IMG/VR virus record: IMGVR_UViG_3300030044_000012
Reading direction: 5' to 3' (one strand)
Origin: an uncultured virus (IMG/VR IMGVR_UViG_3300030044_000012)
Taxonomy: Duplodnaviria; Heunggongvirae; Uroviricota; Caudoviricetes
DNA length: 64,000 nt
Positions 2,942 to 62,562 of this stretch are shown in pieces (positions within the stretch are counted from its first letter, which is position 1; each line of letters begins with the position of its first letter). The notes below the pieces were generated by a model. The model made no database searches. It was not told where the DNA came from and saw only the letters and a list, made by a program, of their open reading frames with translations. A program made the position numbers and the translations under genes.

Positions 2942-5381
2942 TGACAGTCTCCTCTTCCTCTTCGGTTTCTTCGGTAGCTATTTGCACATCGGCCAAAACC
3001 AACCGCTTGTTCCGTTCGTCGGTCGTCCGAATATAGTCTACCACAACAGTCTTCTCTTCTATTGTACCTGAACCATAGTTACTTTTGGAGCAAACTTTTA
3101 GCATGGGGTAGTTCCGATTCACTACCTTTATCCACGCCTGATTATAGTCGGCGGTGTTGCTGATGTTTATGTCGAGTTCGGAAGCGAGGTTGGCCAGACT
3201 CCTATGCCCAGTTCGGTCGGCTTTCTCCGCCTTATCCAGAGCCAGAGCGAACTGGCGGAAGGGGCTGTCCACAGAGAGTAAATGCGGATGCTCCGCCACA
3301 TACCCCATAGCGAACTTCCAAGTAGAGATGAACGGCTTTACAATCAGGCTGAGTTCCATCTCCTTGGCCGGAGTCAATATGCTCTTAATCCGCGATTCCA
3401 CAAAGGGCATGATGCTGATGAAGGAAGGGTCGGATATCAATTTGGAGTCCACCCTGACACCGAACACCGGAGTTGACGCAGTTATTTCCGGGAAAATGTC
3501 CGACTCACGAACCCGACTCAAAAACCTAATGAAGTTTCCGGCGTCTTCGCTGAACCGCGAAGGCAACCCTGCCACATTCGCTCCACCCTTCTCCACGAGT
3601 ACATAGAACTTGAGCGACGTGGGGTCATTAAGGGTAGCATTATCGTCCCCTTTTTCCCACTGCTTCTTCCAGCCATTACCCCGGCGAAAGTGGGTGGTAT
3701 AGGTTGGCAGTACACGCACGTTAGACCGTTCGCGTTTAACTACTTCCAGAGTCTTTTCGGCCTTCATCATAGGCTCATACTTTGCCTTGAGGTCAGATGC
3801 CTTGACTACGGGCGGGTTTCCAAGGTGGTCAAGCAGAGCGAGGGCTTCATCCCCAGCTTGATGCATGGGGATAGTTCGCTCACGCCGGGTAATCACCAGA
3901 GCGCGATTGTACTTGGTAGACTCCAGTGAATACTGGAGCATGTAGTGAACGTACCTATCGGCCACCGTTTTGAGGTCGTTAATCACGAAGATGACCCGGT
4001 TCTCCACATCCACTTTGATGTCAAAATCAGCCTTCTTTGCGACGTTCGACGCCACGTCACGATAGGCAATCGCCCTTTTGGCGGGGGTGGCGTTTTCGAA
4101 CAGGGGCTCCTTCTTAGCCCTTTTGGCCGACTTCCGTTCAGCGGTGCGGAAAGCCACCACTTCTACATGCTGGTAGTCCAGTTCGTTGAGGGTGACCTTT
4201 GCACTACCGAGGGTGAAATTGGAGTATCCCCCCAATAGCAACCCGCGATTATAGGCGTCGTTGACCAAAGTGCCCATCCCGGATTGCATGGACAACTCAT
4301 GAATTTTGAGACGAGCCTCCCACCCCGTATTGCAAGCATCAATCTGCTTCTTGATTTCTTCCAGCAACTTGCTTTGCACAACATCCAACCGCTTCAGGAT
4401 GTTATCGATGGTGTCACCGATAAGGCTCAAAGCCTCGCGGGATGCAGCCGGTTGTAATTCACCCACGTTGAAGAATAAGTCAATGGGCATCCCGAACAGC
4501 TTCTTTTGAGTCTCAGACAAACGGCTGCTGTCGATGTTGCCAACTGCGTACTGTACACAACCCATGATTGCCCGGAGGCCGTCCCCTTGTTCGGTGTCGG
4601 CATAGTCACCTTGCCGCATACCCCAAAGAGGGGTTCGAACCGAGTATTGCGGTGTATTGATGTTGACCGGCTTGTTCAGCTTCGGTCGCGGTTCGAAGAA
4701 CTCGAACACCGAAGCTGCTTTGTTTTCAAACTCCCAAATGTTCTGAGGGTTGACAGGGAAACTGACCGTCACACCGTTTAAAGCATCAGGGGTATCCATC
4801 GGCTCACCCATCATGACCAACTCCGGTAGCCCCTCTTCGCCAACAAAGGCATTGTAGAGGAAGGTCTGGCCGTTGTAACGATTGGTGACCACAAACCCCC
4901 CTGTGACACCACTGCTGTTCAGATAGGCAAATGGCGACTTGGAGCCGAGGCCGAAGCCCCCGATGGCATCATTGGATTGCTGCTTGTCGCTGGCGAAGTA
5001 GGTGGAGTGAAGCCGCTTCACAGCGTCGTAGTCGCCGGTAGCATCGCACTCATAGCATAGAGAGTCACCAGTCATGCCGGTACCATGGCAAGCCTCACAC
5101 CCACCCTTGGTAAACCGCATCCCAGTACCATAGTCGGTGACACTGAAGAATGGTTCAAATTGAGTAGGAAGGTGGATTTCGAAAGGGAGGTTATGCTTAA
5201 ACGCCGCCGTGTGAGAGTCTTTGGCGTTGCAACTCAGTTCGCGAATGACAGCGCGAATCTTGTCGTTGTACAGGTTGTCAGACATGGTTCTAAACAGGAC
5301 AGGGGAGGTTCTAACTTTGAAGCCGGATGGTTTGGACGTTCCTGAAACCTTGGTCACTGTTCCCGCTGTTTCCAATAGCAT
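2931..5381 (-). CDS. rIIA: rIIA-like protein (GHKL ATPase N-terminus)
   Basis: LY.DKIRAVIRELSCNA.DSH, DYGTGM and IGGFGLGSKSPFAY motifs. Confidence 0.88.
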   Translation of the reverse strand: MLLETAGTVTKVSGTSKPSGFKVRTSPVLFRTMSDNLYNDKIRAVIRELSCNAKDSHTAAFKHNLPFEIHLPTQFEPFFSVTDYGTGMRFTKGGCEACHGTGMTGDSLCYECDATGDYDAVKRLHSTYFASDKQQSNDAIGGFGLGSKSPFAYLNSSGVTGGFVVTNRYNGQTFLYNAFVGEEGLPELVMMGEPMDTPDALNGVTVSFPVNPQNIWEFENKAASVFEFFEPRPKLNKPVNINTPQYSVRTPLWGMRQGDYADTEQGDGLRAIMGCVQYAVGNIDSSRLSETQKKLFGMPIDLFFNVGELQPAASREALSLIGDTIDNILKRLDVVQSKLLEEIKKQIDACNTGWEARLKIHELSMQSGMGTLVNDAYNRGLLLGGYSNFTLGSAKVTLNELDYQHVEVVAFRTAERKSAKRAKKEPLFENATPAKRAIAYRDVASNVAKKADFDIKVDVENRVIFVINDLKTVADRYVHYMLQYSLESTKYNRALVITRRERTIPMHQAGDEALALLDHLGNPPVVKASDLKAKYEPMMKAEKTLEVVKRERSNVRVLPTYTTHFRRGNGWKKQWEKGDDNATLNDPTSLKFYVLVEKGGANVAGLPSRFSEDAGNFIRFLSRVRESDIFPEITASTPVFGVRVDSKLISDPSFISIMPFVESRIKSILTPAKEMELSLIVKPFISTWKFAMGYVAEHPHLLSVDSPFRQFALALDKAEKADRTGHRSLANLASELDINISNTADYNQAWIKVVNRNYPMLKVCSKSNYGSGTIEEKTVVVDYIRTTDERNKRLVLADVQIATEETEEEEETVNVY

Positions 5382-11740: not shown

Positions 11741-12247
11741 TTACTTCTTTCTCACTAAAGAATGTCCCTTGATGTGGAGTTTTTTTGCCTTCAACAAAGT
11801 CTCCCATTGTTTGCGGGTGCCGATGTCCCCGCGTGACAAGAGCCCTAGCTCTTCTTCACTACGGCTGAGAGCTTTGAACATCCCGTACAAAGGGTAGTCC
11901 TCTGAAACAAGAGTTTCTTTGCGATGCAGAATCGGTTGGTTGGTTGTCTTCGTAAAATCTGAAATACAGCACTGCTTGCTTGGCAAAACTACCGTAACAC
12001 TATACTTCAGTGCCGGGTGTGGGTTGGTGTCAAAATCAGGGCAACTAAGGAGGCACACATGTAGTCTGTCAGGTGCCACTTTTACCACATCATAGTCAAA
12101 CTCCCCTGCTATTAAGAGAGCCCTCGCCACCAACACTCGCAAGTCTGTTGGGAGGTGGCAAATATTACTTTTGTGAGCATATAGAGGTGTGGATAACCAC
12201 GTCTCCGCCACGGGGCATTCAGGCAACTCAGCAGCTATTGCTTCCAT
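11741..12247 (-). CDS. stand-alone domain resembling DNA phosphorothioation-associated putative methyltransferase
   Basis: FDTNPHPAL..S, N.PILHRKET.V...YP.Y..F..L...EE..GLL and IGT...W..LL motifs. Confidence 0.65.
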   Translation of the reverse strand: MEAIAAELPECPVAETWLSTPLYAHKSNICHLPTDLRVLVARALLIAGEFDYDVVKVAPDRLHVCLLSCPDFDTNPHPALKYSVTVVLPSKQCCISDFTKTTNQPILHRKETLVSEDYPLYGMFKALSRSEEELGLLSRGDIGTRKQWETLLKAKKLHIKGHSLVRKK

Positions 12248-12971
12248 GGTGCGTCAGTCCTTGTGGTAACAAGGTACACACTTTTTCAGTGAGTATCTTT
12301 TTCAGATGTGTGTTCATCTCGGGGAGAGGATCAACCCCACCCAATTGTCGATACAGAGAATACAAATTCGTACGGCCAGTTTCATTGGTTACTGCTTTGC
12401 GAATTTTCTTCTCCACCTCCTCCGGAGTGTCATCTAAGAAGAGACAGCCATCCGGTTCGCTCTTGCTCATTTTTTTGGTCGGGTCGGTTAAACTCATGAC
12501 GCGACCGGCAGCGGGGTTGGCGATTGGTATTTTGACTTCCTCACCAAAGGTCTTGTTGTACCGGGCGAGGAGGTCACGGGCAAAGTTCAAGTGCTGGGAT
12601 TGGTCTTCCCCTACAATTACCTCATCGTATCCAGCCACGTCATGAACCATAAGCACTGGATAAACAAACAAATGAGCCGTCTTCTCATTACTGGCACGAA
12701 ACTGGGTCATCCGGTTCAGTTCGCCCGGATACGTCAGTGCCAACAGCCGAAAATATCGGGTGGCGTCAAAGGTGTTTTTCTGATGCTCTATATTCTTAAC
12801 ACCAAACTGCGACAAAGTAAATACCACAGAGGCAACCATTTTGTCTGAGCAAAAAGGAGCATGATATGTGGCAATTAAAACGGTCGCCCCGGATAGGGCT
12901 GGTTGAATACAAGCGAAGTAATGACCAAGGTGCAACCGCCCGGTTGGGCGGAGGCCGCAGAGAGATTTCAT
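12228..12971 (-). CDS. trpS: compact tryptophanyl-tRNA synthetase
   Basis: GLRPTGRLHLGHY (HIGH), YPVLM..D, VGEDQ.QHL..ARD and KMSKS. ATG at 12971 has a GGAG SD. Confidence 0.9.
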   Translation of the reverse strand: MKSLCGLRPTGRLHLGHYFACIQPALSGATVLIATYHAPFCSDKMVASVVFTLSQFGVKNIEHQKNTFDATRYFRLLALTYPGELNRMTQFRASNEKTAHLFVYPVLMVHDVAGYDEVIVGEDQSQHLNFARDLLARYNKTFGEEVKIPIANPAAGRVMSLTDPTKKMSKSEPDGCLFLDDTPEEVEKKIRKAVTNETGRTNLYSLYRQLGGVDPLPEMNTHLKKILTEKVCTLLPQGLTHHGSNSC

Positions 12972-12984
12972 AGCTGGCTCCGAT

Positions 12985-13554
12985 TTAATGGATGAGTTCG
13001 TCGTTGTAACGCAGATGTGGGTGTAGGTACTGGGGCGGTACTTCATCCACGAGCCAGACTCCATTGGGGGTTAGGTAAAAATGAATCCCGTTTTGATGCA
13101 TGTCGCCGGTCCTCACCGTTAACACCACCGGCTTACCATGTCGTTCACCGACCTTGAAGGCCGTCTGCAAATCCGCAGACAGGTGAACGTGGTGTCGGGA
13201 GCCCTTTATCAAACCTAATCTCAGGATGGAGCCAAGGAACCGTCTTGCGGTGCCGTGGTAGAGGAGCTTAGGTGGCTCCACAGGGTCATACTTAAGATCA
13301 ACCTTGATGCTGTGACCTTGAGATGCCCGGATTCGTTTGCCGTCGTCGGAGAACTCAAAACGCTTTTTGTCGTTCTCAGCTACAACCTCGTCAAGCTCTT
13401 CGCGGGTGATTTTATGCCCATGGGAAGCGCAACCCTGAAGGAGTTCTGCCACGGGGCACCAACCAGCCTCATCAAGGGTCAGGCCAGCTTCCTCGGGCTT
13501 GTGCCGCAAGATCAGGCTAAGGAACTTACTTGTACGTACGAGAGGGGTCGTCAT
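12985..13554 (-). CDS. kptA: RNA 2'-phosphotransferase (Tpt1/KptA)
   Basis: SKFLSLILRH, NDKKRF, IRASQGHS, LYHGT, RHHVHLS and NGVWL motifs. Confidence 0.95.
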   Translation of the reverse strand: MTTPLVRTSKFLSLILRHKPEEAGLTLDEAGWCPVAELLQGCASHGHKITREELDEVVAENDKKRFEFSDDGKRIRASQGHSIKVDLKYDPVEPPKLLYHGTARRFLGSILRLGLIKGSRHHVHLSADLQTAFKVGERHGKPVVLTVRTGDMHQNGIHFYLTPNGVWLVDEVPPQYLHPHLRYNDELIH

Positions 13555-13556
13555 AC

Positions 13557-13832
13557 TTACTCCGGTTGCGTGCTGCACACAGGGAGGTCGTGCTCGTCAA
13601 AAACATGTTCGGCCAGTGCGTAGGGAGGCCCATTCAACCAACCCTCTTCCTTGGCTTGGTCTTGGGATATAACCTTAATCCGGCAACCGTCTTGCGCGTG
13701 CAAGTCAACGCAAACAACTTCAATTTGGTCGATGCGAACGGCAACGACCACCCGAGTACCAATATCAGTACACTGATACTGCTTACCTGAGCACCAGAAG
13801 CGTTCACCAATTTTGAAATCTGAGAGTTTCAT
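13557..13832 (-). CDS. hypothetical protein (leaderless)
   Basis: GGTATAGT 6 nt before the ATG. Confidence 0.65.
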   Translation of the reverse strand: MKLSDFKIGERFWCSGKQYQCTDIGTRVVVAVRIDQIEVVCVDLHAQDGCRIKVISQDQAKEEGWLNGPPYALAEHVFDEHDLPVCSTQPE

Positions 13833-13865: not shown

Positions 13866-13956
13866 TGGTGGGTGTGGAGGGATTTGAACCCCCACCATTA
13901 GCCCTCTCGGGTACGGATTAAAAGTCCGCTGTGCGACCAGATTACACTACACACCC
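13866..13956 (-). tRNA. tRNA-Lys(UUU) with long variable arm
   Basis: Acceptor GGGTGTG/CACACCC, loop CT-TTT-AA, 19-nt variable region with CCC-GAGA-GGG, CCA end. Confidence 0.88.
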
Positions 13957-13969
13957 ATGAAATAAATTT

Positions 13970-14044
13970 TGGTGGGTGCGGTCGGACTCGAACCGACATT
14001 TCGACGCTTAAAAGGCGAGTTTCCTGCCATTGAATGACGCACCC
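13970..14044 (-). tRNA. tRNA-Lys(UUU) with two anticodon-stem mismatches
   Basis: Cloverleaf with anticodon stem CTCGC/GCGTC and CCA end. Confidence 0.85.
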
Positions 14045-20677: not shown

Positions 20678-21833
20678 CTATACTTCCTTAAGCACTTTCA
20701 TGCCAAGGAGGACCATACACTGTTGTAATACGCCAACTGCATAATGAAGGGCGTAAACGAACCCGGCATCACCATGCTGAATCGACTTCTTACCATACAC
20801 CTCTGACAGCTTCTTCGCCAGAGACAGAGCAAACTGTGCGATGTACGTAGGCTCCTTTTGGTCGATAGCCTTTTGCCAGTAGTATTGCAAGTAGCTGGCA
20901 AACCCACAAAGCTGGGCATCTTCCAGAGATAGAACATCCGGGTCACCTTCAATCGCAAAAGATAAAGCCTTGCTGACCTTTGCATTAGTGTGGGAGATGT
21001 AGATTCCGGGGCTTGTAATGTTGCACCAGTTCTTCACATCGCACACAGTGTCCTTACCTACTGACGTGGAGTTAAACTGCCACGCCAGCACGTTCCAAGC
21101 TAAATCGAAAGGGTGTGGCGTGGGTTTTAATACCGCAAGGGTCTCATTGATGAGTTCGTCGGCCAACATTAGGTTGACGTTCTCACCTTCCAACTTTACT
21201 GTACTCCGCATCTTTTTCTTATCGAGGCCGAGGACAAGCCCCATGGACAAATGTTTGTTGCCCACACCTAACGACTGAAAGTGTGAATGTTGTTCCTGAC
21301 CTGTAAGATAGAAATCAGGCTTCACAACTTCGGCGAAACTCAAGTCGTGTGCGGCGTAGGTTGCCGCTCCTGTAGACTTGTAGATCACCACGCTGCCCAG
21401 CATCTTGCATCCAGCGTACCCACCCTCACCTTCAGTGAGAAGCACGGTTGGGGCCGGTAGCTCATTGTCGAGATACATGACCGGACTGTATCCGGCGACT
21501 TGGCACCATGCCTTATACTTGGCAAGAGCACCCTCTACAACCCCATTGGCGGCTCCCAGCATCGCCACGGGTTTGGCTCCAGTGATGTTGGCAATCGCAG
21601 CCGCAATGCAAAGGTTTTTCAAATGCCCAACGTGAAGGTCTTTGTTCAGGTTAGGTGAAAACCCATCAAATATGATGCCTGATGGTACGGCCTTCGTCGG
21701 CCATTCCCAAGCTTGTGGGGTGACATGGTAGTTGTGAAATATTCCCGTGGGCTTATAATCAAACCCGACGAAGATACTCCAGTGAAGTCGAAGATGTAAT
21801 TCCGACTCCGATGTTCTCAGGCATTGGTTTCAT
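20678..21833 (-). CDS. argS: arginyl-tRNA synthetase split by a +1 frameshift near 21771
   Basis: FSPNLNKDLHVGH (HIGH, upstream of the TTG used by the ORF track), KSTG..TY...DL, GLV..DKKKMRS and EP..IA.F...LA...Y. The ATG at 21833 has an AGGAG SD but is in another frame. Confidence 0.82.
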
Positions 21834-22252
21834 GATGCGTCTCCTAAAATTACTCCAAAGGTGTGCCTCTCGGCCAAAGACTCTAAGGGCTGGCATGGTC
21901 GTCTCAGTACAGGGGTAAGGATGTCTTAATTCCCCGTTCCCAATCAGACCCACAGTTCCTCTCGTAATGTGTGGGCAAAACCATGTCTTGCTACTAGTTT
22001 GCCAAGTTGGCCGATGTAGGAGGATACTGACCCCGTTACCGGGGGGCTAAAGCCTACTGTCGAACCACTCAGGTACTCCATTCACATTCCCTGCGGTTAT
22101 ACGCTGGACTTTAGTGCATCCCCAAAACATTGTCCAGACCCTTGGCCTCGGTCGCGCTAGACCTACTACCCTCCGCTCGTCACTCCTTAGAAGATGGGAT
22201 TCTAACCCGACCTCCCTTTGGAACTTGTGTGGCCGAATGTCAGGCCACGAAG

Positions 22253-22325
22253 CTGGAACGGAAGGACTCGAACCTTCAACCTTGGGATTCAGAATCCCCT
22301 GCACTGCCAATTGTGCTACGTTCCA
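22253..22325 (-). tRNA. tRNA-Gln(CUG), CCA not encoded
   Basis: Acceptor TGGAACG/CGTTCCA and loop TT-CTG-AA. Confidence 0.88.
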
Positions 22326-23457: not shown

Positions 23458-23548
23458 TGGCTCCGAGGGTAGGATTCGAACCTACAGGGAAGGATAAACC
23501 AACACGCATTAACAGTGCGTTCCGTTGCCAATTACGGTTTACCTCGGA
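23458..23548 (-). tRNA. tRNA-Asn(GUU) with 18-nt variable region
   Basis: Loop CT-GTT-AA, G73, CCA end. Confidence 0.85.
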
Positions 23549-23555
23549 ACAACTT

Positions 23556-23630
23556 TGGCTCACTCGGAGAGATTCGAACTCCCGACCCGCTGGTTAACGG
23601 CCAGCCGCTCTGCCACTGAGCTACGAGTGA
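23556..23630 (-). tRNA. tRNA-Asn(GUU) with C33
   Basis: Loop CC-GTT-AA and CCA end. Confidence 0.88.
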
Positions 23631-23650
23631 ACAACTTGTACATCTAAACT

Positions 23651-23739
23651 TGGCTCAAGGGAAGAGACTCGAACTCTCAGAGGGCTTTCACCCACTTGCT
23701 TAACAGGCAAGTACGCTACCAGTTACGTTTTACCCTTGA
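23651..23739 (-). tRNA. tRNA-Asn(GUU) with long variable arm
   Basis: V-arm GGGT-GAAA-GCCC and CCA end. Confidence 0.86.
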
Positions 23740-23761: not shown

Positions 23762-23836
23762 TGGCAGGGGCGGAGGGATTCGAACCCCCAAGTTCGGTTT
23801 TGGAGACCGACAGTTTGCCGTTGAGCTTACGCCCCT
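23762..23836 (-). tRNA. tRNA-Trp(CCA)
   Basis: Loop CT-CCA-AA, G73, CCA end. Confidence 0.9.
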
Positions 23837-23842
23837 GTAACT

Positions 23843-23949
23843 TAGACGACGGGCGTCCTTCCGTTGAACGACGCGATGCTCTATGCATCTGGTAGAGGAC
23901 TTACTAACGGCCTTGACCAGATGGGATTCGAACCCATACAGCCCGTCTA
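23843..23949 (-). ncRNA. circularly permuted tRNA-like RNA (YrlA-like order)
   Basis: T arm precedes D arm, closed by GACGGGC/GCCCGTC. Confidence 0.5.
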
Positions 23950-23967
23950 CTTGTTGGGCAAACTTCT

Positions 23968-24041
23968 TGCCCGAATAGTAGGACTCGAACCTACACTGTG
24001 TCTCGTTCGTAGCGAGATTGACTATCCATTGCCGATGGGGC
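23968..24041 (-). pseudogene. degenerate tRNA-Arg(ACG)
   Basis: Intact anticodon and T arms. Broken acceptor stem and no CCA. Confidence 0.6.
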
Positions 24042-24271
24042 CACATGTCACCGTTCGATTACTTTTCGGCATGTCACCGAACGGGTACAAACTTGAGCCG
24101 GGGCTTACCCGGAACAGCGGACTTACTCCGACCGCCGCCCGTGGGCTCGGTCACTGCGTCTGCCAGAGGATTTACTCACTCGACCTCTGCTACACTTCGA
24201 AAGAGGCAACATATTACCTATTACACGGTCAAATCGCACATAACCGGCAATATGTTGCCTTTTATCCAACT

Positions 24272-24360
24272 TGGTGTACCCGGAGGGACTCGAACCCCCG
24301 TGGAGAACTTTCGTTCAACAGATTCGTAGTCTGGTGCCTCATCCGCTAGGCTACGGGTAC
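24272..24360 (-). tRNA. tRNA-Arg(ACG) with long variable arm
   Basis: V-arm GAAC-GAAA-GTTC and CCA end. Confidence 0.88.
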
Positions 24361-24452
24361 ATGGTGAAACTAAATCCGCCCCCTTTGCCATTTGTTGTCG
24401 CGAACAACGCCGCTTACGCGGGAACCGATTTGAACGGTCTCAGGGATGGTAC

Positions 24453-24528
24453 TGGGGCACCCGGTGAGAATCGAACTCACGACCTACTCCTTCGGAGGGA
24501 GCCGCTCTATCCACTGAGCTACGGGTGC
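24453..24528 (-). tRNA. tRNA-Arg(CCG)
   Basis: Loop CT-CCG-AA and CCA end. Confidence 0.92.
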
Positions 24529-24757
24529 AAAACTTAAGCCGGGTCTCTCCAGCCGGGGGTCACTCCACTTCGACTTGCCATTCAACCTAACTTCGGACAT
24601 CCCGAAGGTCTATTGACTGTCTTCACCGCCGAGTGGCGGAACGTCACGCAAGGTGTCGCGTTCTCGACGTAGATTCTAGCGGTGGATTTCCTTCAGGGTT
24701 TCCCCTTACTGGTATTACATCCCTTTCGGGTACCGCACTGTCCACGTCGAAACTTAT

Positions 24758-24833
24758 TGGGGCGGCTGGAGAGATTCGAACTCTCGACTACCTGAGCCAC
24801 AGTCAGGCGTTCTACCGCTGAACTACAGCCGCC
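24758..24833 (-). tRNA. tRNA-His(GUG), G-1 encoded
   Basis: Loop CT-GTG-GC, G-1:C73 pair, CCA end. Confidence 0.92.
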
Positions 24834-24847
24834 ATAAAAACAAAACT

Positions 24848-24928
24848 TGGGGCGAATGGTGGGAATTGAACCCACGAGACCACGGTTTCACAGACCGGAG
24901 GCACATACCAACACTGCCGACAAACGCC
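24848..24928 (-). tRNA. tRNA-His(GUG) variant, G-1 encoded
   Basis: Loop CT-GTG-AA, two T.T acceptor mismatches, CCA end. Confidence 0.8.
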
Positions 24929-25046
24929 ATAAACTTTGGGGTCTCTCCCTCCCGTCAAGCCGACACGTCTGGCTTTCGACCTATTACGCTCATGTTGTCA
25001 AACATCATCTCGATTTGACCTGAGTCAATCGGAATATCGTACATCT

Positions 25047-25134
25047 TGGCAGGGGTGGAGGGGGTCGAACCCTCAGTGAGCGTTACGCTCGGCGGTTTTG
25101 GAGACCGCTGCATTTCCAACAATGCTTCACCCCT
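25047..25134 (-). tRNA. tRNA-Trp(CCA) with long variable arm
   Basis: V-arm GAGCG-TAA-CGCTC, G73, CCA end. Confidence 0.88.
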
Positions 25135-30164: not shown

Positions 30165-32126
30165 TCATAGATGTCCTTCCTTCTTCCAGTGGTAAAGCAT
30201 CGCCTCTACTACAATCTTGTTGATGGCCCCACGATCACACAGGGGTGGCAATGGAGACACCTTCTCCGCTTCAACCACAGCTTCGCGAAGTCGGTTGTAC
30301 TCACTCGTAACACGCTCGATGTTCCACCCACCGTTACGGATTTCGAGGAGTGTCGATACATTCGGACGAGGGAAGGTCATAGTTCCGGTCTGCAACAGTT
30401 CAAGGCATTCATCCATAGAGCGAACCATGTGCATCGCGGCCTTGCAGTTTCCTTGAAATGCGGGACGACCTTGACTGCGAGTGACCAGTGTGCCCAACGG
30501 CATTTCAAAGCAGACAACCCGGTGATTTTCCACTTTGATTTCCTTGATGGGGTAACCATACTTCTGCTTCGGCTCCTCTCCTGCCCTCAGGATTCCACTT
30601 TTGAAGTTGACACAACGAAACTGACTTTGGTCAGCGGGGCGGTACACCTGATACATCGGAATGTTTCCTAATTTGGTTTCATCTCGGTCGTATTCATAAG
30701 GACCGTTGACCACACAAATATGCCCTGAAGACACCATCATTGCTTGAACATCATCGGCCAATTTCTTAACCGATGTATAAAGGAGGGTGCCTTGCCCATC
30801 CTTTCTTTCTTTCTTGGTACGATAACCATCACCCAAGCAAAGACTGTTCCATAAAATCCACGCCTGTTCGTAGCCCAATTGGAAACACCAATCAGGTAAA
30901 TGCTTAGCCTTGTGGTGACCGAAGTCCTCGTATAGCTTGTACGCCAGCTTCCTTGGGAAGGTCCAAACTGTCTCATATTCGACGTGTTCGCGTGGATAAT
31001 CATAGCGGTGCCCATGGAAAATTGTACGCAGCCTATCTGCGTACTGGTAATACTCTTCTTTGCCTTCGGGTGTTTGCACAACCCTAACGCTCTTCACCCT
31101 CCCCTCGCGAAAAGAGATGCTGCCCTCTGACAGGTATAACCCAGCCAGTGACAGGTATTCATCCATCACATCGTATTGATAGATGCGTGGTGAGGCCGAA
31201 CGAGGAGTATGGTACATCGAGCGTACAACTCGGGCTTTAACCCCGCCCATGAGGTCTGACAATTGAACGAGACGCCAATCGGCTTTACCGGGGTAATATT
31301 TTGTGCTGAATCCTAATTTAGGGTTTCTGGACGCAGGGGATGCCACCATATTGTGGTTGGGAGTCACAACACAGCGAGTGAGTTGAGGTTCAACAACGTA
31401 CATGAAACCCGAATGATATTTATCAATCCTCCGCAGCGGAGTGTCAAATCGCACAGCATCAAACCGCACGCCGGATGTCTGTCCCTTAATGAAGTCAAAC
31501 GTGGCTAGTTTGTCCGAATCAAGCACATCATCAAATCGCTTCCAACCGTGGTCAGTGAGAAACTCTGTTTCAGAATCAAGGTAGCAATCGTACCCATGGG
31601 CAGCTATCAAATCATCCCTCTGACCATGTTTCCCGGCTCCCTGTAGCCCCAACAAGCGGTTGTACTGGCTCTTCCCTAGTCCGAGGAAGGCCGCAGTGTG
31701 TCCAGAGGCAAGGAAGAGGCTCCTGTGAGGTAGAATGTAGGTGTCCCATACGCTCGGGTGAGTCACATGACTATCCTTGATGGGTTCGGGAGCGAATAGG
31801 TAGCTGAGGATGGTAGGGTTACCCTTCATGGCGAGTCCCGCCCAGCGCCTGAGAGTGTAAGCTTTAAGATCGGTGTCATCAGCCGTGTTCTTTTCGTATT
31901 GGTCGGACGTTCCCTGTGTGATGTGTCCCTTCTGTCGAGGGTCTTCATTTCCGAGGGCGAGTTCGAACACAGGGTCGCCGATGTACACACCGGCCACATC
32001 GAGGTCGGACTTCCCTTCGATACGGGCTCCGTGCATTGAAGAGCCTGACGCGAAGGCAAGAATCACCTGATCCAACCTCAGCATCGGATTTCTCAACAAC
32101 ACATTAACCAATTCACCGTTAAGCAC
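30165..32126 (-). CDS. DNA polymerase-beta-superfamily nucleotidyltransferase (RlaP/YcgL-like) with intein
   Basis: GS..HG.....SDLD..GVY, KGNP..L..LF, GYD|..|CKAAMH..R motifs. Confidence 0.85.
   Translation of the reverse strand: MLNGELVNVLLRNPMLRLDQVILAFASGSSMHGARIEGKSDLDVAGVYIGDPVFELALGNEDPRQKGHITQGTSDQYEKNTADDTDLKAYTLRRWAGLAMKGNPTILSYLFAPEPIKDSHVTHPSVWDTYILPHRSLFLASGHTAAFLGLGKSQYNRLLGLQGAGKHGQRDDLIAAHGYDCYLDSETEFLTDHGWKRFDDVLDSDKLATFDFIKGQTSGVRFDAVRFDTPLRRIDKYHSGFMYVVEPQLTRCVVTPNHNMVASPASRNPKLGFSTKYYPGKADWRLVQLSDLMGGVKARVVRSMYHTPRSASPRIYQYDVMDEYLSLAGLYLSEGSISFREGRVKSVRVVQTPEGKEEYYQYADRLRTIFHGHRYDYPREHVEYETVWTFPRKLAYKLYEDFGHHKAKHLPDWCFQLGYEQAWILWNSLCLGDGYRTKKERKDGQGTLLYTSVKKLADDVQAMMVSSGHICVVNGPYEYDRDETKLGNIPMYQVYRPADQSQFRCVNFKSGILRAGEEPKQKYGYPIKEIKVENHRVVCFEMPLGTLVTRSQGRPAFQGNCKAAMHMVRSMDECLELLQTGTMTFPRPNVSTLLEIRNGGWNIERVTSEYNRLREAVVEAEKVSPLPPLCDRGAINKIVVEAMLYHWKKEGHL
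30447..31586 (-). mobile_element. intein with LAGLIDADG endonuclease (380 aa)
   Basis: Starts CYLDSETEFLT..GWK, block B VTPNH, LAGLYLSEG and LCLGDG, ends FQGN|C. Confidence 0.9.
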
Positions 32127-54583: not shown

Positions 54584-55834
54584 TCACTTTCCTTTCGAAA
54601 GCAAATCGAACGACACCAGCTTCAGCTTCACCCGACCAAGAGCGCGGTCGTGCCGCTCAACCACCGGGCACACTACAATACCTTCCTTCATGTGGTTGGC
54701 GAAGGTAGAATTTCCGAGGCTGAGTTCCTTTAACTTCTCTGCGTCCCACGGTCCTCGGTAAATTACCGGAGCCCGGTACTGTTCCGGGAGGATGGCTTCA
54801 AGTTCCAAGTAATCAGCGAACCTATCAACTTTCAGCACATCGAAAATGCGGATGTGGTTAGGCTGATTCGGCTTCACGCCGTACTTCAGCTTCTGCACGT
54901 TGCCAAATGTCTCACCGTAAACAATCCAGTCTGGGTGCTCCTGACAAAACTTCGCCAGCCATGGGTGAGCACGGAACGCCCTCCACCACAGGTTGGCAGG
55001 AGAATCCAACCAGAACGCTTCCCTGCTACCGCAGAACTGCCGGTATTCACCTGTAACCCTGTCCTTGGCATAGACGAAGCGGCTGTTGGCACCATCAAGC
55101 TTCTCGGTCGCCACAACCTCTTCACCCGGCAAGAACACGTTAGGCCAGTTGTAGTAGTTTTCCACGTCGTACTCATGGAGCCACGGTAGGTCAGGACCGA
55201 TTTCACGCTCCCCTTCGGAACCTGCCGGGAGGGTTGGCTCGTAACGCTTCAGAGACATAGTGTCCCACACGTCGTCACCAACCTCGGCGGTCAAAAGGCA
55301 AGGCAGTTCGCGAAGTTCGTCGGTCGTTTCAAGGACGCTCTCAAGTCCGTTAATGTGGACGTTCTTACCGTTATCGCTGGTCATAAGAATCCAGCCCTTT
55401 TTGCACAGAGGGCACTCGGTGGTAGGCCAGAGCATACCGAACGACTGTACCCCCCTTAGACGACGAGCAGTGATACGTAGATTCTTGGTGTTGGCCTTTT
55501 CGCCGTCTTCGATGTGCTGGAGGCGAATGTTGTATTCATCTCTAATCGAAGAGGGAACGCCAACATTTCCCGGTATTCCGATGGGGTGAGTGAACTCCTT
55601 GGCTAGTTCGGCACGAGCGGAGTTGTTCCGCTTCAGAAAAGCGAAGTCTTCGGTATCTGGAACTACCGTATCAGGCTGAATGTAGACGGCCTTGGTGACG
55701 CCCTGCCAGTCTTCAGTGGCTACAACGCACGTGTAGGCATTCACACGGACAATCGAGAGACGAGTCGTCTCCGGGTCGGGGTGAGGTTCTAGTACAACGG
55801 GTACTACGTATGCATGGTGGTTACTGTCTGCCAT
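54584..55834 (-). CDS. RNA ligase, DRB0094/Rnl5-like
   Basis: N-terminal OB-like domain (PHP...RL, LRGVQS.G), TEKLDGAN, YGE.FG, FDV, EGIVV and KLK. Confidence 0.85.
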   Translation of the reverse strand: MADSNHHAYVVPVVLEPHPDPETTRLSIVRVNAYTCVVATEDWQGVTKAVYIQPDTVVPDTEDFAFLKRNNSARAELAKEFTHPIGIPGNVGVPSSIRDEYNIRLQHIEDGEKANTKNLRITARRLRGVQSFGMLWPTTECPLCKKGWILMTSDNGKNVHINGLESVLETTDELRELPCLLTAEVGDDVWDTMSLKRYEPTLPAGSEGEREIGPDLPWLHEYDVENYYNWPNVFLPGEEVVATEKLDGANSRFVYAKDRVTGEYRQFCGSREAFWLDSPANLWWRAFRAHPWLAKFCQEHPDWIVYGETFGNVQKLKYGVKPNQPNHIRIFDVLKVDRFADYLELEAILPEQYRAPVIYRGPWDAEKLKELSLGNSTFANHMKEGIVVCPVVERHDRALGRVKLKLVSFDLLSKGK

Positions 55835-61123: not shown

Positions 61124-61705
61124 TTAGCACGAGCATGAGAAGTAGGTTGGGGGTTGGAAGAACCTCTTGCCTGTGACAATTTCGACGTGTGTCCAAAACT
61201 CGGGTGGAATCTCTCCGTGGGCATCGCTGCCATTGAAGTGAATGTACTCACCGTCGATGTAACTACTGCCATACCTGCCCTTGGTGATGACCTCCATCAC
61301 GTCGTCGTATCCGGGGCAGTCAGCATTGGCACAGAAATCCCGCAACCATGCTTCAGATGCTGCCTTGCTGCTCGGGCTGATTGTTGCAACCTCCGCCTCA
61401 GGAAAGTCCGGGTGTGACCACACGTGACGGAGTGAGGTAATCTGGCGAGGATACACGACCAACCAGAACCACGAGCCCTTGAGAACCTTGTTGTTCAAAA
61501 AGGGGTCCACAATACCCAGCGGCTTTTTGACCACCCCTGCTTTCCCGTCTATCAAACCAACGTGCTGGCCGGGGTAAAGGTCGATGGCCGCTTGTACCGG
61601 CTCCACCGCCAAGTGAATGGCATCGCGGCCTTGTCCGGGCTGGATGATAGTACCCAATGTTTCGAGTGCGTCGGTCGATACCGAACGCTTGTCTCCGTTG
61701 CTCAT
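61124..61705 (-). CDS. conserved phage protein
   Basis: RDAIHLAV, GIVDPFL, P..ITSLRHVW.HP and a terminal FSCSC. Confidence 0.75.
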   Translation of the reverse strand: MSNGDKRSVSTDALETLGTIIQPGQGRDAIHLAVEPVQAAIDLYPGQHVGLIDGKAGVVKKPLGIVDPFLNNKVLKGSWFWLVVYPRQITSLRHVWSHPDFPEAEVATISPSSKAASEAWLRDFCANADCPGYDDVMEVITKGRYGSSYIDGEYIHFNGSDAHGEIPPEFWTHVEIVTGKRFFQPPTYFSCSC

Positions 61706-62562
61706 GCAGTCACCCCTTTTGCTTTTAGTGTGTTGTCATCACCTTCCCAGTGACGAGGAATCATGTTTCGGAGGTAATCACGGTTGCGGGTGAAGGTCGG
61801 CGTGGATTCATCGAGAGCCCACTCGCCACGACGAGCGATGGAGAGGGCGAGCGCCTCATCACTAAGCACAGGGGTGTGCTTACGAATAACCCCACCATGC
61901 TTGAATCGTACAGGATGCTTCGCCCAGTTGTCTCCAGCCTCATGAATGATTTCGTGGCGCTCCGGGGTACTCTTACCCTGCAACTTCTTATGCGAAGCGT
62001 AGGCGGAGGCAAGTTGCGTCACTGAGTTGCGTGCTGCGTCCTGCTGCCGCCAGATGAAATAGTTTTCGACCTCGATGTAATCGGGGATGGTGAAAGCACG
62101 AGCATCGAATACAGCATCGGGAGTTTTACCAAACCACGGGGCTTCCTTCATTGAGTCAGACCATGATGCAGTTTTACTGAAGTGGGCTACGATGCGGTTG
62201 AAGCTCATGGTAGCGATAGAAGCAGCTACAGAAACCCACTTCTGGAGGTTACCGTCGAACCATGATTGTGAGCCCTCGTCAGCGAAGTCGGTCGCCAGCA
62301 CAGAAATTTCATCGCTCTGGACATAGGCGAAACGAGCCCCGGCGATTTCCTTGCAGAGAGCGATGGCCGCAGCATCCATGCAAGACATGAATTTGGTATC
62401 ATAAGGCTTTGTGAGCCCCTTTGTCCATGTATGGAAGGCGCGACCATCTACACGAAGAATAGTGTAGGTGCGACGGGGCAGGAAGAACCGACTGCGGTCT
62501 TCATACTGACCCTTCATTCTGTCTCCGAGTTTGTCGTTCTTTGGCTGGTTGCCCATGGTCAT
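61702..62562 (-). CDS. thg1: tRNA-His guanylyltransferase Thg1-like protein
   Basis: RVDGRAFH, YVQSDEIS, FDAR and NYFIWRQQDA.RNS motifs. Confidence 0.93.
   Translation of the reverse strand: MTMGNQPKNDKLGDRMKGQYEDRSRFFLPRRTYTILRVDGRAFHTWTKGLTKPYDTKFMSCMDAAAIALCKEIAGARFAYVQSDEISVLATDFADEGSQSWFDGNLQKWVSVAASIATMSFNRIVAHFSKTASWSDSMKEAPWFGKTPDAVFDARAFTIPDYIEVENYFIWRQQDAARNSVTQLASAYASHKKLQGKSTPERHEIIHEAGDNWAKHPVRFKHGGVIRKHTPVLSDEALALSIARRGEWALDESTPTFTRNRDYLRNMIPRHWEGDDNTLKAKGVTA

Follow-up and report, generated by a model that had tools for sequence, protein, structure and literature searches.

A probable +1 ribosomal frameshift at a leucine codon before tandem arginine codons in the split mini-ArgRS gene of a huge uncultured phage

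The gene considered here is located on the minus strand of a 64-kb stretch of DNA from the uncultured virus record IMGVR_UViG_3300030044_000012 (here denoted the window, meaning the whole stretch of 64,000 nucleotides that was analysed). It is split between two reading frames and resembles the gene of arginyl-tRNA synthetase (ArgRS), argS. Its 5' part is a short open reading frame (ORF) denoted ORF0, which is led by a Shine-Dalgarno (SD) sequence and closes with the codons CTG-GAG-TAT-CTT-CGT-CGG-GTT-TGA. An initial annotation of the window had described an AGGAG-led short ORF ending GGAG-TAT-CTT-CGT-CGG-GTT-TGA, and this ORF is present as described, on the minus strand. The ArgRS-like sequence lies in the +1 frame with respect to ORF0, and this frame stays open from 21829 to 20681. 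A frame scan bore out the claim that this frame holds no ATG, GTG or TTG upstream of its HIGH motif, which here reads HVGH. The first such codon is the TTG at 21622, immediately 3' of HVGH (21634-21623), indicating that no canonical start retains the HIGH/ATP-binding signature. Codons 1-21 of ORF0 are assigned by homology to the true N-terminus of the enzyme; added to the 363 codons of the +1 frame they give 384 amino acids (aa), in agreement with the full ArgRS of about 384 aa that had been predicted. Both zero-frame stop codons downstream of the junction, TGA and TAA, hinge on synonymous choices in the +1 frame, namely TTT and TAT. The coordinates of these and other features are collected in Table 1.

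Table 1. Positions of the split argS gene, its candidate recoding signals and selected tRNA genes in the window.
Feature	Position	Strand	Remarks
Shine-Dalgarno AGGAG	21841..21845	-	7 nucleotides (nt) 5' of the ORF0 start; AGGAG and 7 nt also precede the GTG start in the related gene L008
ORF0, MKPMPENIGVGITSSTSLEYLRRV followed by a stop; 24 codons and TGA	21759..21833	-	ATG 21833-21831, stop 21761-21759
Internal SD-like GGAG	21777..21780	-	Followed by a TAT spacer (3 nt), then the putative CTT shift codon
Proposed shift heptamer CUU_CGU_C	21767..21773	-	CTT 21773-21771; A-site codon CGU (Arg), CGC in L008; the slip itself is putative
Tandem zero-frame Arg codons CGT CGG	21765..21770	-	Directly 3' of CTT; in L008, CGG is identical and CGT is changed to the synonymous CGC
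Zero-frame stops TGA (21761-21759) and TAA (21755-21753)	21753..21761	-	Terminate non-shifted ribosomes; both present in L008 (TGA CTA TAA)
Predicted hairpin CGU-c-GGGUUUG-AUUA-UAAGCCC-ACG	21746..21770	-	Begins at the A-site codon
+1-frame body of the mini-ArgRS, 363 codons from GTC	20678..21769	-	Stop 20680-20678; HVGH 21634-21623
tRNA-Arg(ACG), 89 nt	24272..24360	-	Apparent long extra arm
tRNA-Arg(CCG), reads CGG	24453..24528	-	
tRNA genes present in short and long versions	13866-14044, 23556-23739, 24758-24927, 23762-25134		

The frame break is a real feature of this DNA and not an error. The stretch is covered in 24 peat-metagenome runs, and the contigs of four of these runs were compared at the site. 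Two DNA contigs, X6 record 10 (21108-21984) and X8 record 20 (21679-21916), which come from runs not flagged as possible sources of the window, show 0 differences and 0 gaps over the site. A contig from an RNA library, X22 record 5 (21640-21848), also crosses the site with 0 differences and 0 gaps. The check for an indel that the initial annotation had advised thus found none: no indel is listed in any of the four runs, including the two DNA contigs and the RNA-library contig across the site, the comparison being one of assembled contigs and not of raw reads, which rare variants would escape. The RNA runs X21 and X22 leave parts of the stretch uncovered, a gap that has no bearing on expression. 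In addition, the separate assembly L007 is 100% identical to the window.

The same split is found in a second lineage. A metagenome protein scan yielded L007-L012, among which L008 and L009 represent one sequence recovered from two samples (0 differences over 1,400 bases compared). The L008 protein is identical to that of the window at 278/364 residues (76%). Synonymous sites are near saturation, with a proportion of synonymous differences (pS) of 0.69, and the ratio of non-synonymous to synonymous change (dN/dS) is 0.086, which is strongly purifying. The L008/L009 gene lies in a different tRNA order from that of the window. It has the same anatomy: AGGAG, 7 nt, a GTG start, 24 codons (VKPMPEVVGVGVTSIAPLEYLRRV) and a TGA at the matching place. 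Its site reads CTG-GAG-TAC-CTT-CGC-CGG-GTT-TGA-CTA-TAA, and the element common to the window and L008/L009 is GGAG-TAY-CTT-CGY-CGG-GTT-TGA. Over ORF0, the two lineages differ in frame 0 by six synonymous and eight non-synonymous changes, the latter mostly conservative. The +1 frame over the ORF0 of L008 holds TAG and TAA at codons 7 and 12, indicating that this ORF0 must be read in frame 0. Downstream of the site, it is the +1 frame that evolves as coding sequence. At the site itself we noticed three differences: TAT/TAC and CGT/CGC, both silent in frame 0, and GAT/GAC, silent in the +1 frame. The change from CGT to CGC leaves the A-site codon coding for Arg and turns the overlapping codon of the +1 frame from Val to Ala. 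Of the ten site codons eight are identical, the background being 0.47 (P about 0.04, a modest excess).

The DNA-level comparison comprises two lineages, the window with L007 and L008 with L009. An alignment of argS homologues had been suggested as a way to look for a conserved split, and the outcome is that L008/L009 share the identical split and that more distant relatives are single-frame. Two protein scans of viral contigs found only L001 and L002 as relatives, both unshifted, and genome-contig scans and a site-pattern scan of viral contigs gave no match. A search of the 64-aa extended ORF0 against called short ORFs in relatives gave no candidate. Since a distant relative keeps the same layout, the arrangement suggests a built-in switch rather than a broken gene. 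That the gene is a decaying pseudogene, or that the break is an assembly or sequencing error, is highly improbable: metagenome assemblies do often carry broken frames, and the distant relative L012 also shows a frame break, but the independent contigs are indel-free, the break is identical in a lineage at the divergence and purifying selection given above, and frame 0 is preserved upstream of the break as the +1 frame is downstream of it.

Single-frame homologues show how the two parts of the gene fit together. The homologues P0010 (= L001) and P0014 (= L002) start MKPMPEHIGVGIT...GSFKHESIGIYHNY, and their continuous-frame N-termini read MKPMPEHIGVGITAMTSLECLGSFKHESIGIYHNYF and MHPIPEQVGVGVTSLTPLDLKGFRYESVGIYHNYH, respectively. 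Four residues are near-invariant among 80 full-length homologues (P3 80/80, P5 77/80, G9 80/80 and G11 80/80), and all four are encoded in ORF0, both in the window and in L008. The next motif, G23 (59/80) and Y/F24 (76/80), is encoded by the GGG TTT of the +1 frame. As homology bounds both sides, the frame change falls after ...SLEY and before GF, with TAT, CTT or CGT in the P site. The joined 384-aa product matches P0010 in length, with no gap. A +1 change of frame, as first proposed, is therefore needed to make this protein, the break being real, conserved in L008/L009 and bounded by homology at its junction.

The +1 frame matches ArgRS profiles weakly yet specifically: PF00750 with 26.8 bits (cut-off 23.3), DALR_1 PF05746 with 20.8 bits, below the cut-off of 22.3, and TIGR00456 with 38.7 bits against an argS equivalog cut-off of 261.65. 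A search of 5.8 billion protein clusters identified 222 relatives among 5211 candidates, the best 120 of which are 253-460 aa long; the name 'arginyl-tRNA synthetase' carried by relatives is an automatic annotation. The phage collection yielded only two distant relatives, with 31-35% identity. When a profile of 85 relatives was compared with the PDB, 12 of 12 matches were ArgRS chains (best 5jld_A, 3e-21), and H67, G69 and H70 of the HIGH signature are invariant in the 85 sequences. A fold model was made for the unshifted homologue P0010, which is 64% identical to the window protein. This AlphaFold model has a predicted local distance difference test score (pLDDT) of 96.6 and a predicted template modelling score (pTM) of 0.93, and in it the strands at 11-14, 25-29 and 32-36 form one confident N-terminal unit across the junction. 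In a Foldseek comparison ArgRS fills the top 17 rows, and the model aligns with yeast ArgRS (1bs2) over 367/385 residues with a Z of 28.5 and a root-mean-square deviation of 3.2. ArgRS chains align from P0010 residue 1, whereas the alignments of CysRS and MetRS begin only at about residue 44-51, indicating that the N-terminal segment is an ArgRS-specific part of the fold and not a spare leader. Canonical ArgRS proteins (1bs2, 4oby and 6ao8) share the fold with P0010 (Z 27-28.5, 367-373 residues aligned) as well as HVGH and the DALR-type anticodon-binding domain. Their chains measure 564-607 aa, however, and the phage protein, of about 384 aa, is without most of the N-terminal additional domain and some insertions of the canonical enzymes. 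Judged from the model, the predicted gene product belongs to a 'mini' ArgRS family of about 385-400 aa.

Gene calls were compared for the best 120 of the 222 relatives. The N-terminus is missing from the calls of 12 of the 13 nearest clusters (P0001-P0013, the exception being P0010) versus 8 of the 107 others listed; the 12 short clusters include the call made for the window itself. In the 10 nearest clusters, the 25 members have lengths of 154-357 aa. The choice of start varies by pipeline: the window gene is called at 296 or 314 aa, members of the L008 cluster at 295, 320 or 357 aa, and members of the P0004 cluster at 317, 348, 353 or 354 aa. Such scattered start calls are what a true start in another frame would produce. 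P0009 is the L008 gene called from a TTG upstream of HVGH. For a quick tree, sequences were trimmed at the HIGH motif and 71 rows were used: the window, L008 and 69 matches out of the top 70. P0003, which is the call for the window itself, was omitted, and the fragment P0071, at rank 71, fell outside the set. In this tree 10 truncated rows, including the window and L008, group together with a support of 96 in the Shimodaira-Hasegawa-like approximate likelihood ratio test (SH-aLRT), and P0010 and P0014 sit just outside the group.

These calls also bear on an account that does without a frameshift. ORF0 would then encode a leader peptide, and an enzyme lacking its first 27-29 residues would start downstream by re-initiation or from a weak start (ACG or ATA in the window, GTG28 in L008, ATG30 in P0002 and P0004). 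Several relatives do have start-like codons at position 28 or 30, at a distance of 9-15 nt downstream of the ORF0 stop. Against this, the window is devoid of ATG, GTG and TTG before HVGH, and the start is not conserved, P0123 being called only from a GTG at position 37. Moreover, the four near-invariant residues persist in ORF0, GFDYKP persists in the +1 frame through a synonymous change, and the N-terminal strands form a single unit in the P0010 model. We consider the leader-peptide account improbable.

Among the P-site candidates UAU, CUU and CGU, only CUU would be able to re-pair in the +1 frame, on UUC, with a tRNA-Leu of anticodon GAG or UAG; a move from UAU to AUC or from CGU to GUC fails by the same reasoning. 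We infer that the slip takes place on CUU; alternatively, it may be of the Ty3 type, with CGY in the P site and CGG as the A-site codon, in which case the product would contain LRGF. The sequence GGAGNNNCTTCG occurs twice in the 64 kb (both strands) versus 0.65 expected, the other copy being antisense to a local gene. At none of the 16 other in-frame CTT-CGN pairs in the 39 ORFs is there a GGAG 3 nt upstream (0/16). With its retention in L008, the pattern exceeds what chance would give.

The features of the site, taken together with the comparison of the two lineages, point to a programmed +1 ribosomal frameshift at CUU_CGY_C, which probably yields the 384-aa mini-ArgRS. Ribosomes would initiate at the AGGAG-led ATG (21833) and decode 21 codons in frame 0. 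With peptidyl-tRNA-Leu on the CUU and CGU in the A site, the tRNA would re-pair on UUC, and decoding would resume GUC-GGG-UUU..., giving ...SLEYL-VGFDYKPTG.... Ribosomes that do not shift would read CGU-CGG-GUU, end at UGA and release a 24-aa peptide. The likely stimulators would be the GGAG 3 nt 5' of CUU, in the arrangement of the bacterial release factor 2 (RF2) gene prfB, and a hairpin that begins at the A-site codon.

This hairpin was not part of the initial annotation. Its 7-bp core is invariant in L008, and its predicted folding energy (dG) is -8.7 kcal/mol in the window (4/200 shuffles fold as well) and -9.2 in L008 (5/200). The unshifted L001 and L002 have no equivalent hairpin. By its predicted position, such a structure could drive a shift or a pause without any sensing of arginine.

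A number of observations weigh against a programmed shift or against a sensing role for its Arg codon. CGT and CGC make up 27% and 22% of the 636 Arg codons in the 39 ORFs and are the commonest Arg codons there, and 16 other in-frame CTT-CGN pairs exist in the same ORFs. Being the commonest Arg codons in phage ORFs, CGU and CGC are not slow by themselves, and these counts together mean that the heptamer alone cannot be very shifty; only the hairpin, tRNA damage or starvation could make CGU slow. Coding DNA contains GGAG about as often as expected (4.8 per kb versus 5.0), and the unshifted L001 also has it (TTG GAG TGC TTA), indicating that GGAG predates the shift; its retention may be explained in part by the conserved Leu-Glu residues that it encodes, which would largely fix it. 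The contrast between the Arg codon kept in the A site and the change from Val to Ala rests on one substitution, and the LAWNVLAWQF region is more conserved than the site, with 28/30 identical nucleotides versus 27/30. Once CUU occupies the P site the hairpin would be open, unless it could refold in the A site. Its 'compensatory' pair depends on the register, the minimum-energy fold of L008 using a C-G pair one position over, and longer stretches show no significant folding (z -0.7 to -2.05). Start-type codons stand just downstream of the junction, GTG28 in L008 and P0006 and ATG30 in P0002 and P0004. The split is seen at the DNA level in two lineages, the other 'truncated' relatives being deduced from gene calls, and the RNA-library contig across the site has a depth of 2.2 and is possibly carried-over DNA.

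Several other routes to a joined product were tried and rejected. Transcriptional slippage is discounted by the lack of any homopolymer longer than 3 nt at the site and by the RNA-library contig, which is indel-free across it. Against translational bypass (hopping) stand the absence of a matching landing codon and a joined product exactly as long as P0010, with no gap. An extended outer stem, pairing GGAG with downstream sequence, is predicted in both lineages and was dropped as a conserved feature on the grounds that its registers differ between them. Rfam gave no match at the shift site or in the 5' leader, and a scan for promoters and terminators stayed at chance level.

We also considered a shift three codons later, at GUU_UGA, which would sense RF2 and give ...LRRV-DYKP.... 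The string GUU-UGA-Y resembles CUU-UGA-C, and CGG GTT TGA is identical in both lineages, with the upstream differences TAT/TAC and CGT/CGC synonymous in frame 0. On the other side, positions 23 and 24 would become R and V, where the +1 frame encodes the conserved G-F; tRNA-Val on UUU would, we reason, have a first-position mismatch; and there is no SD-like element 3 nt before GUU. A shift at this place is very unlikely. Still less credible is decoding of a four-base codon (for example CUUC or CGUC) by a phage tRNA whose anticodon loop is enlarged, which would restore the frame; we hold this proposal to be extremely improbable. The phage does carry many unusual tRNAs, several of them 80-91 nt long, and the 64 kb seen are part of a genome no smaller than 310 kb. 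However, no four-base anticodon is reported for any of the 21 window tRNAs, and in the two tRNA-Arg genes that were inspected the anticodon loop measures 7 nt. A four-letter step reading CTTC as Leu would break the frame again, as CTT-C is found in frame once more before HVGH.

Returning to the +1 shift at CUU, its purpose may be to sense arginine, as the initial annotation inferred. In this sense-codon counterpart of the prfB switch, shifting would rise as charged tRNA-Arg runs short, and ArgRS would regulate its own synthesis; the shortage could come, for example, from starvation of the host or from cleavage of tRNA-Arg as a host defence. We favour this purpose tentatively, from the sequence of the site, and would not call it probable. 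Alternatively, the same +1 shift may take place at a fixed rate set by the hairpin and GGAG, with no sensing role for the Arg codon; a variant has an old 1-nt insertion tolerated through low-level slippage. A recoding review (PMC5009743) describes phage PSA as shifting +1 beside a 3' structure at a sense codon, and treats frameshifting as translational 'correction' of 'savior' indels, both in line with a fixed rate. So are the abundance of CGU and CGC and a hairpin that is conserved in, and specific to, the two shifted lineages. Telling against a fixed rate are the two tandem Arg codons that follow CUU in an ArgRS gene and, more weakly, being a single substitution, the A-site codon that stays Arg as the +1 codon turns from Val to Ala. 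A fixed rate otherwise fits the data equally well; on balance we regard it as doubtful.

In Escherichia coli prfB, the spacer is UAU and the optimum SD spacing is 3 nt. The in-frame UGA of that gene is codon 26, and its shift takes place at CUU_U with a 5' SD stimulator and a short ORF1 (PMC5009743). The phage argS gene shares with prfB a short ORF (AUG-led in prfB and of 24 codons here), the CUU shift codon, an SD-like element upstream (3 nt here), a main body in the +1 frame and a short peptide where no shift occurs. The logic may be shared too, in that the product governs the decoding speed of the A-site codon. In prfB, however, the A site holds UGA, read by RF2, whereas here it holds a sense Arg codon (CGT, or CGC in L008) and the product is ArgRS-like. 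The slip here would be from CUU to UUC, as against CUU to UUU in prfB, the zero-frame stop comes three codons further on, and the hairpin from the A-site codon is a feature of the phage gene that sets it apart from prfB. The 'prfB-like' label given at first is thus apt for the short ORF, the GGAG 3 nt before CUU and the +1 body, but does not extend to an A-site UGA or an RF2 product; it is a description of possible workings and not of family membership.

Yeast Ty1 shifts at CUU_AGG_C with 40% efficiency at a slow Arg codon (PMC5009743). Ty1 and ABP140 share with the phage site a slip of tRNA-Leu from CUU before an A-site Arg codon, within a heptamer of the form CUU_xGx_C (PMC5009743). The Arg codon of Ty1 is rare and its tRNA scarce, in contrast to the CGU and CGC of the phage. 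Also unlike Ty1, the system here is a bacterial or phage one with an SD-like stimulator, and its product is the enzyme predicted to charge the tRNA in question. The phage argS gene thus resembles prfB and Ty1 in its working and is a member of neither, since an A-site UGA and an RF2 product are absent and the Arg codon is not rare. In Listeria phage PSA, a +1 shift occurs just 5' of a pseudoknot (PMC5009743); a +1 shift at a sense codon of a phage gene, directly 5' of an RNA structure or a stop, is what the PSA capsid and tail genes have in common with argS. PSA shifts on a Pro codon near the 3' end, for an extended second product, whereas the shift proposed here is early and would be obligatory for function.

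Control of synthetase genes by the supply of charged tRNA is well known from T-box leaders and from leader-peptide attenuation. In these, too, the charged cognate tRNA is read through a codon or a tRNA in the 5' part of the mRNA. They act on transcription termination or on initiation by alternative RNA folds, whereas in argS it is the reading frame within the coding sequence that would be controlled. A full-text literature search brought up, in the portions of papers it returned, none that describes a frameshift in a synthetase gene, and in the 2016 recoding review (PMC5009743) the term 'aminoacyl-tRNA synthetase' is absent from the first 300,000 of 449,034 characters.

The genome is that of a huge phage: contigs carrying the same protein measure up to 310,335 nt, and a contig with a close cluster measures 435,156 nt. 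IMG/VR viral contigs carry two of the relatives. There are 21 tRNA genes in the window, with all four tRNA-Arg types (Arg-ACG, Arg-CCG, Arg-CCT and Arg-TCT) among them, and argS itself is placed within a tRNA array; tRNA-Arg(ACG) presumably reads CGU and CGC after A34-to-I editing. The window also encodes Ku, an NAD-dependent DNA ligase, an RNA ligase, Tpt1, Thg1, RlaP and HNH nucleases. Tpt1, RlaP, the RNA ligase and Thg1, along with three HNH nucleases, surround the tRNA arrays (12988-13578, 30168-32126, 54587-55834 and 61705-62562). This RNA-repair and tRNA-maturation set fits a phage that repairs or replaces damaged tRNAs.

Four pairs of tRNA genes have the same anticodon in a short and a long version: Lys-ttt (75/91 nt), Asn-gtt (75/89), His-gtg (75/80) and Trp-cca (75/88). 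A further tRNA at 23463-23546, on the minus strand, scores 36.8 bits with Rfam and is unreported by ARAGORN. At 12231-13578, also on the minus strand, we noticed a small Trp/Tyr-type class I synthetase (PF00579, 1e-33) directly downstream of the gene for Tpt1/KptA, an RNA 2'-phosphotransferase whose stop is at 12985-12987. The longest ORF of the Trp/Tyr-type frame reaches 13064, past the Tpt1 stop, an overlap that is unnecessary if the protein starts with MKSLCGLRPTG near 12960. This gene was considered as a second frameshifted synthetase in the window and rejected, having at 12231-12960 an ordinary start, MKSLCGLRPTG, and no break. Between the argS start and tRNA-Gln (22252-22325), at 21860-22250, lie about 390 nt without an ORF, tRNA or Rfam match. 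RNA-library contigs have a summed depth of 27-33 over 21883-22000, versus 2.2 over the argS start, and relatives about 86% identical over 21860-22250 are present in the same runs. This segment may be an unknown stable RNA or a structured leader.

Other irregular N-termini occur in the mini-ArgRS family. P0026, P0031, P0033 and P0036, which are outside the shifted clade, are also called without the N-terminal peptide; the calls of P0031 and P0033 begin immediately before the G-Y motif, and P0026 is on a contig of 232,892 nt. Frame breaks in the family may thus have arisen more than once. L012, from a GC-rich soil contig and a distant clade (52% identity), encodes at 660-720 an N-terminal CRFADLPPGYHY in one frame and KGIYHNYHF in the frame that is -1 relative to it (...GCC CCA AGG G...), which is either a second, different frame break near the same place or an assembly error. 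In L002 the single-frame ArgRS-like gene stops early, at about 3990-4011 (...AQFTLRLNDGRCPTDR, then a stop), where P0014 runs about 55 residues beyond; there may be an insertion or an intron near the 3' end of the L002 gene.

Programmed +1 frameshifts that act as sensors are few, those of RF2 and antizyme being the textbook cases, and none was described for any aminoacyl-tRNA synthetase in the parts of the literature searched. The four tRNA-Arg genes and the RNA-repair set near argS give the context in which sensing of arginine would be understood. Every pipeline seen mis-annotates the gene, calling truncated products of 295-357 aa, often without the HIGH motif, and because of this truncation the synthetase content of huge phages is under-called. 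If the shift at CUU does respond to the supply of arginine, a frameshift at a cognate codon, contained in a cassette about 60 nt long, would be a direct gauge of charged tRNA at the level of the ribosome and a new answer to the matching of synthetase levels with demand.

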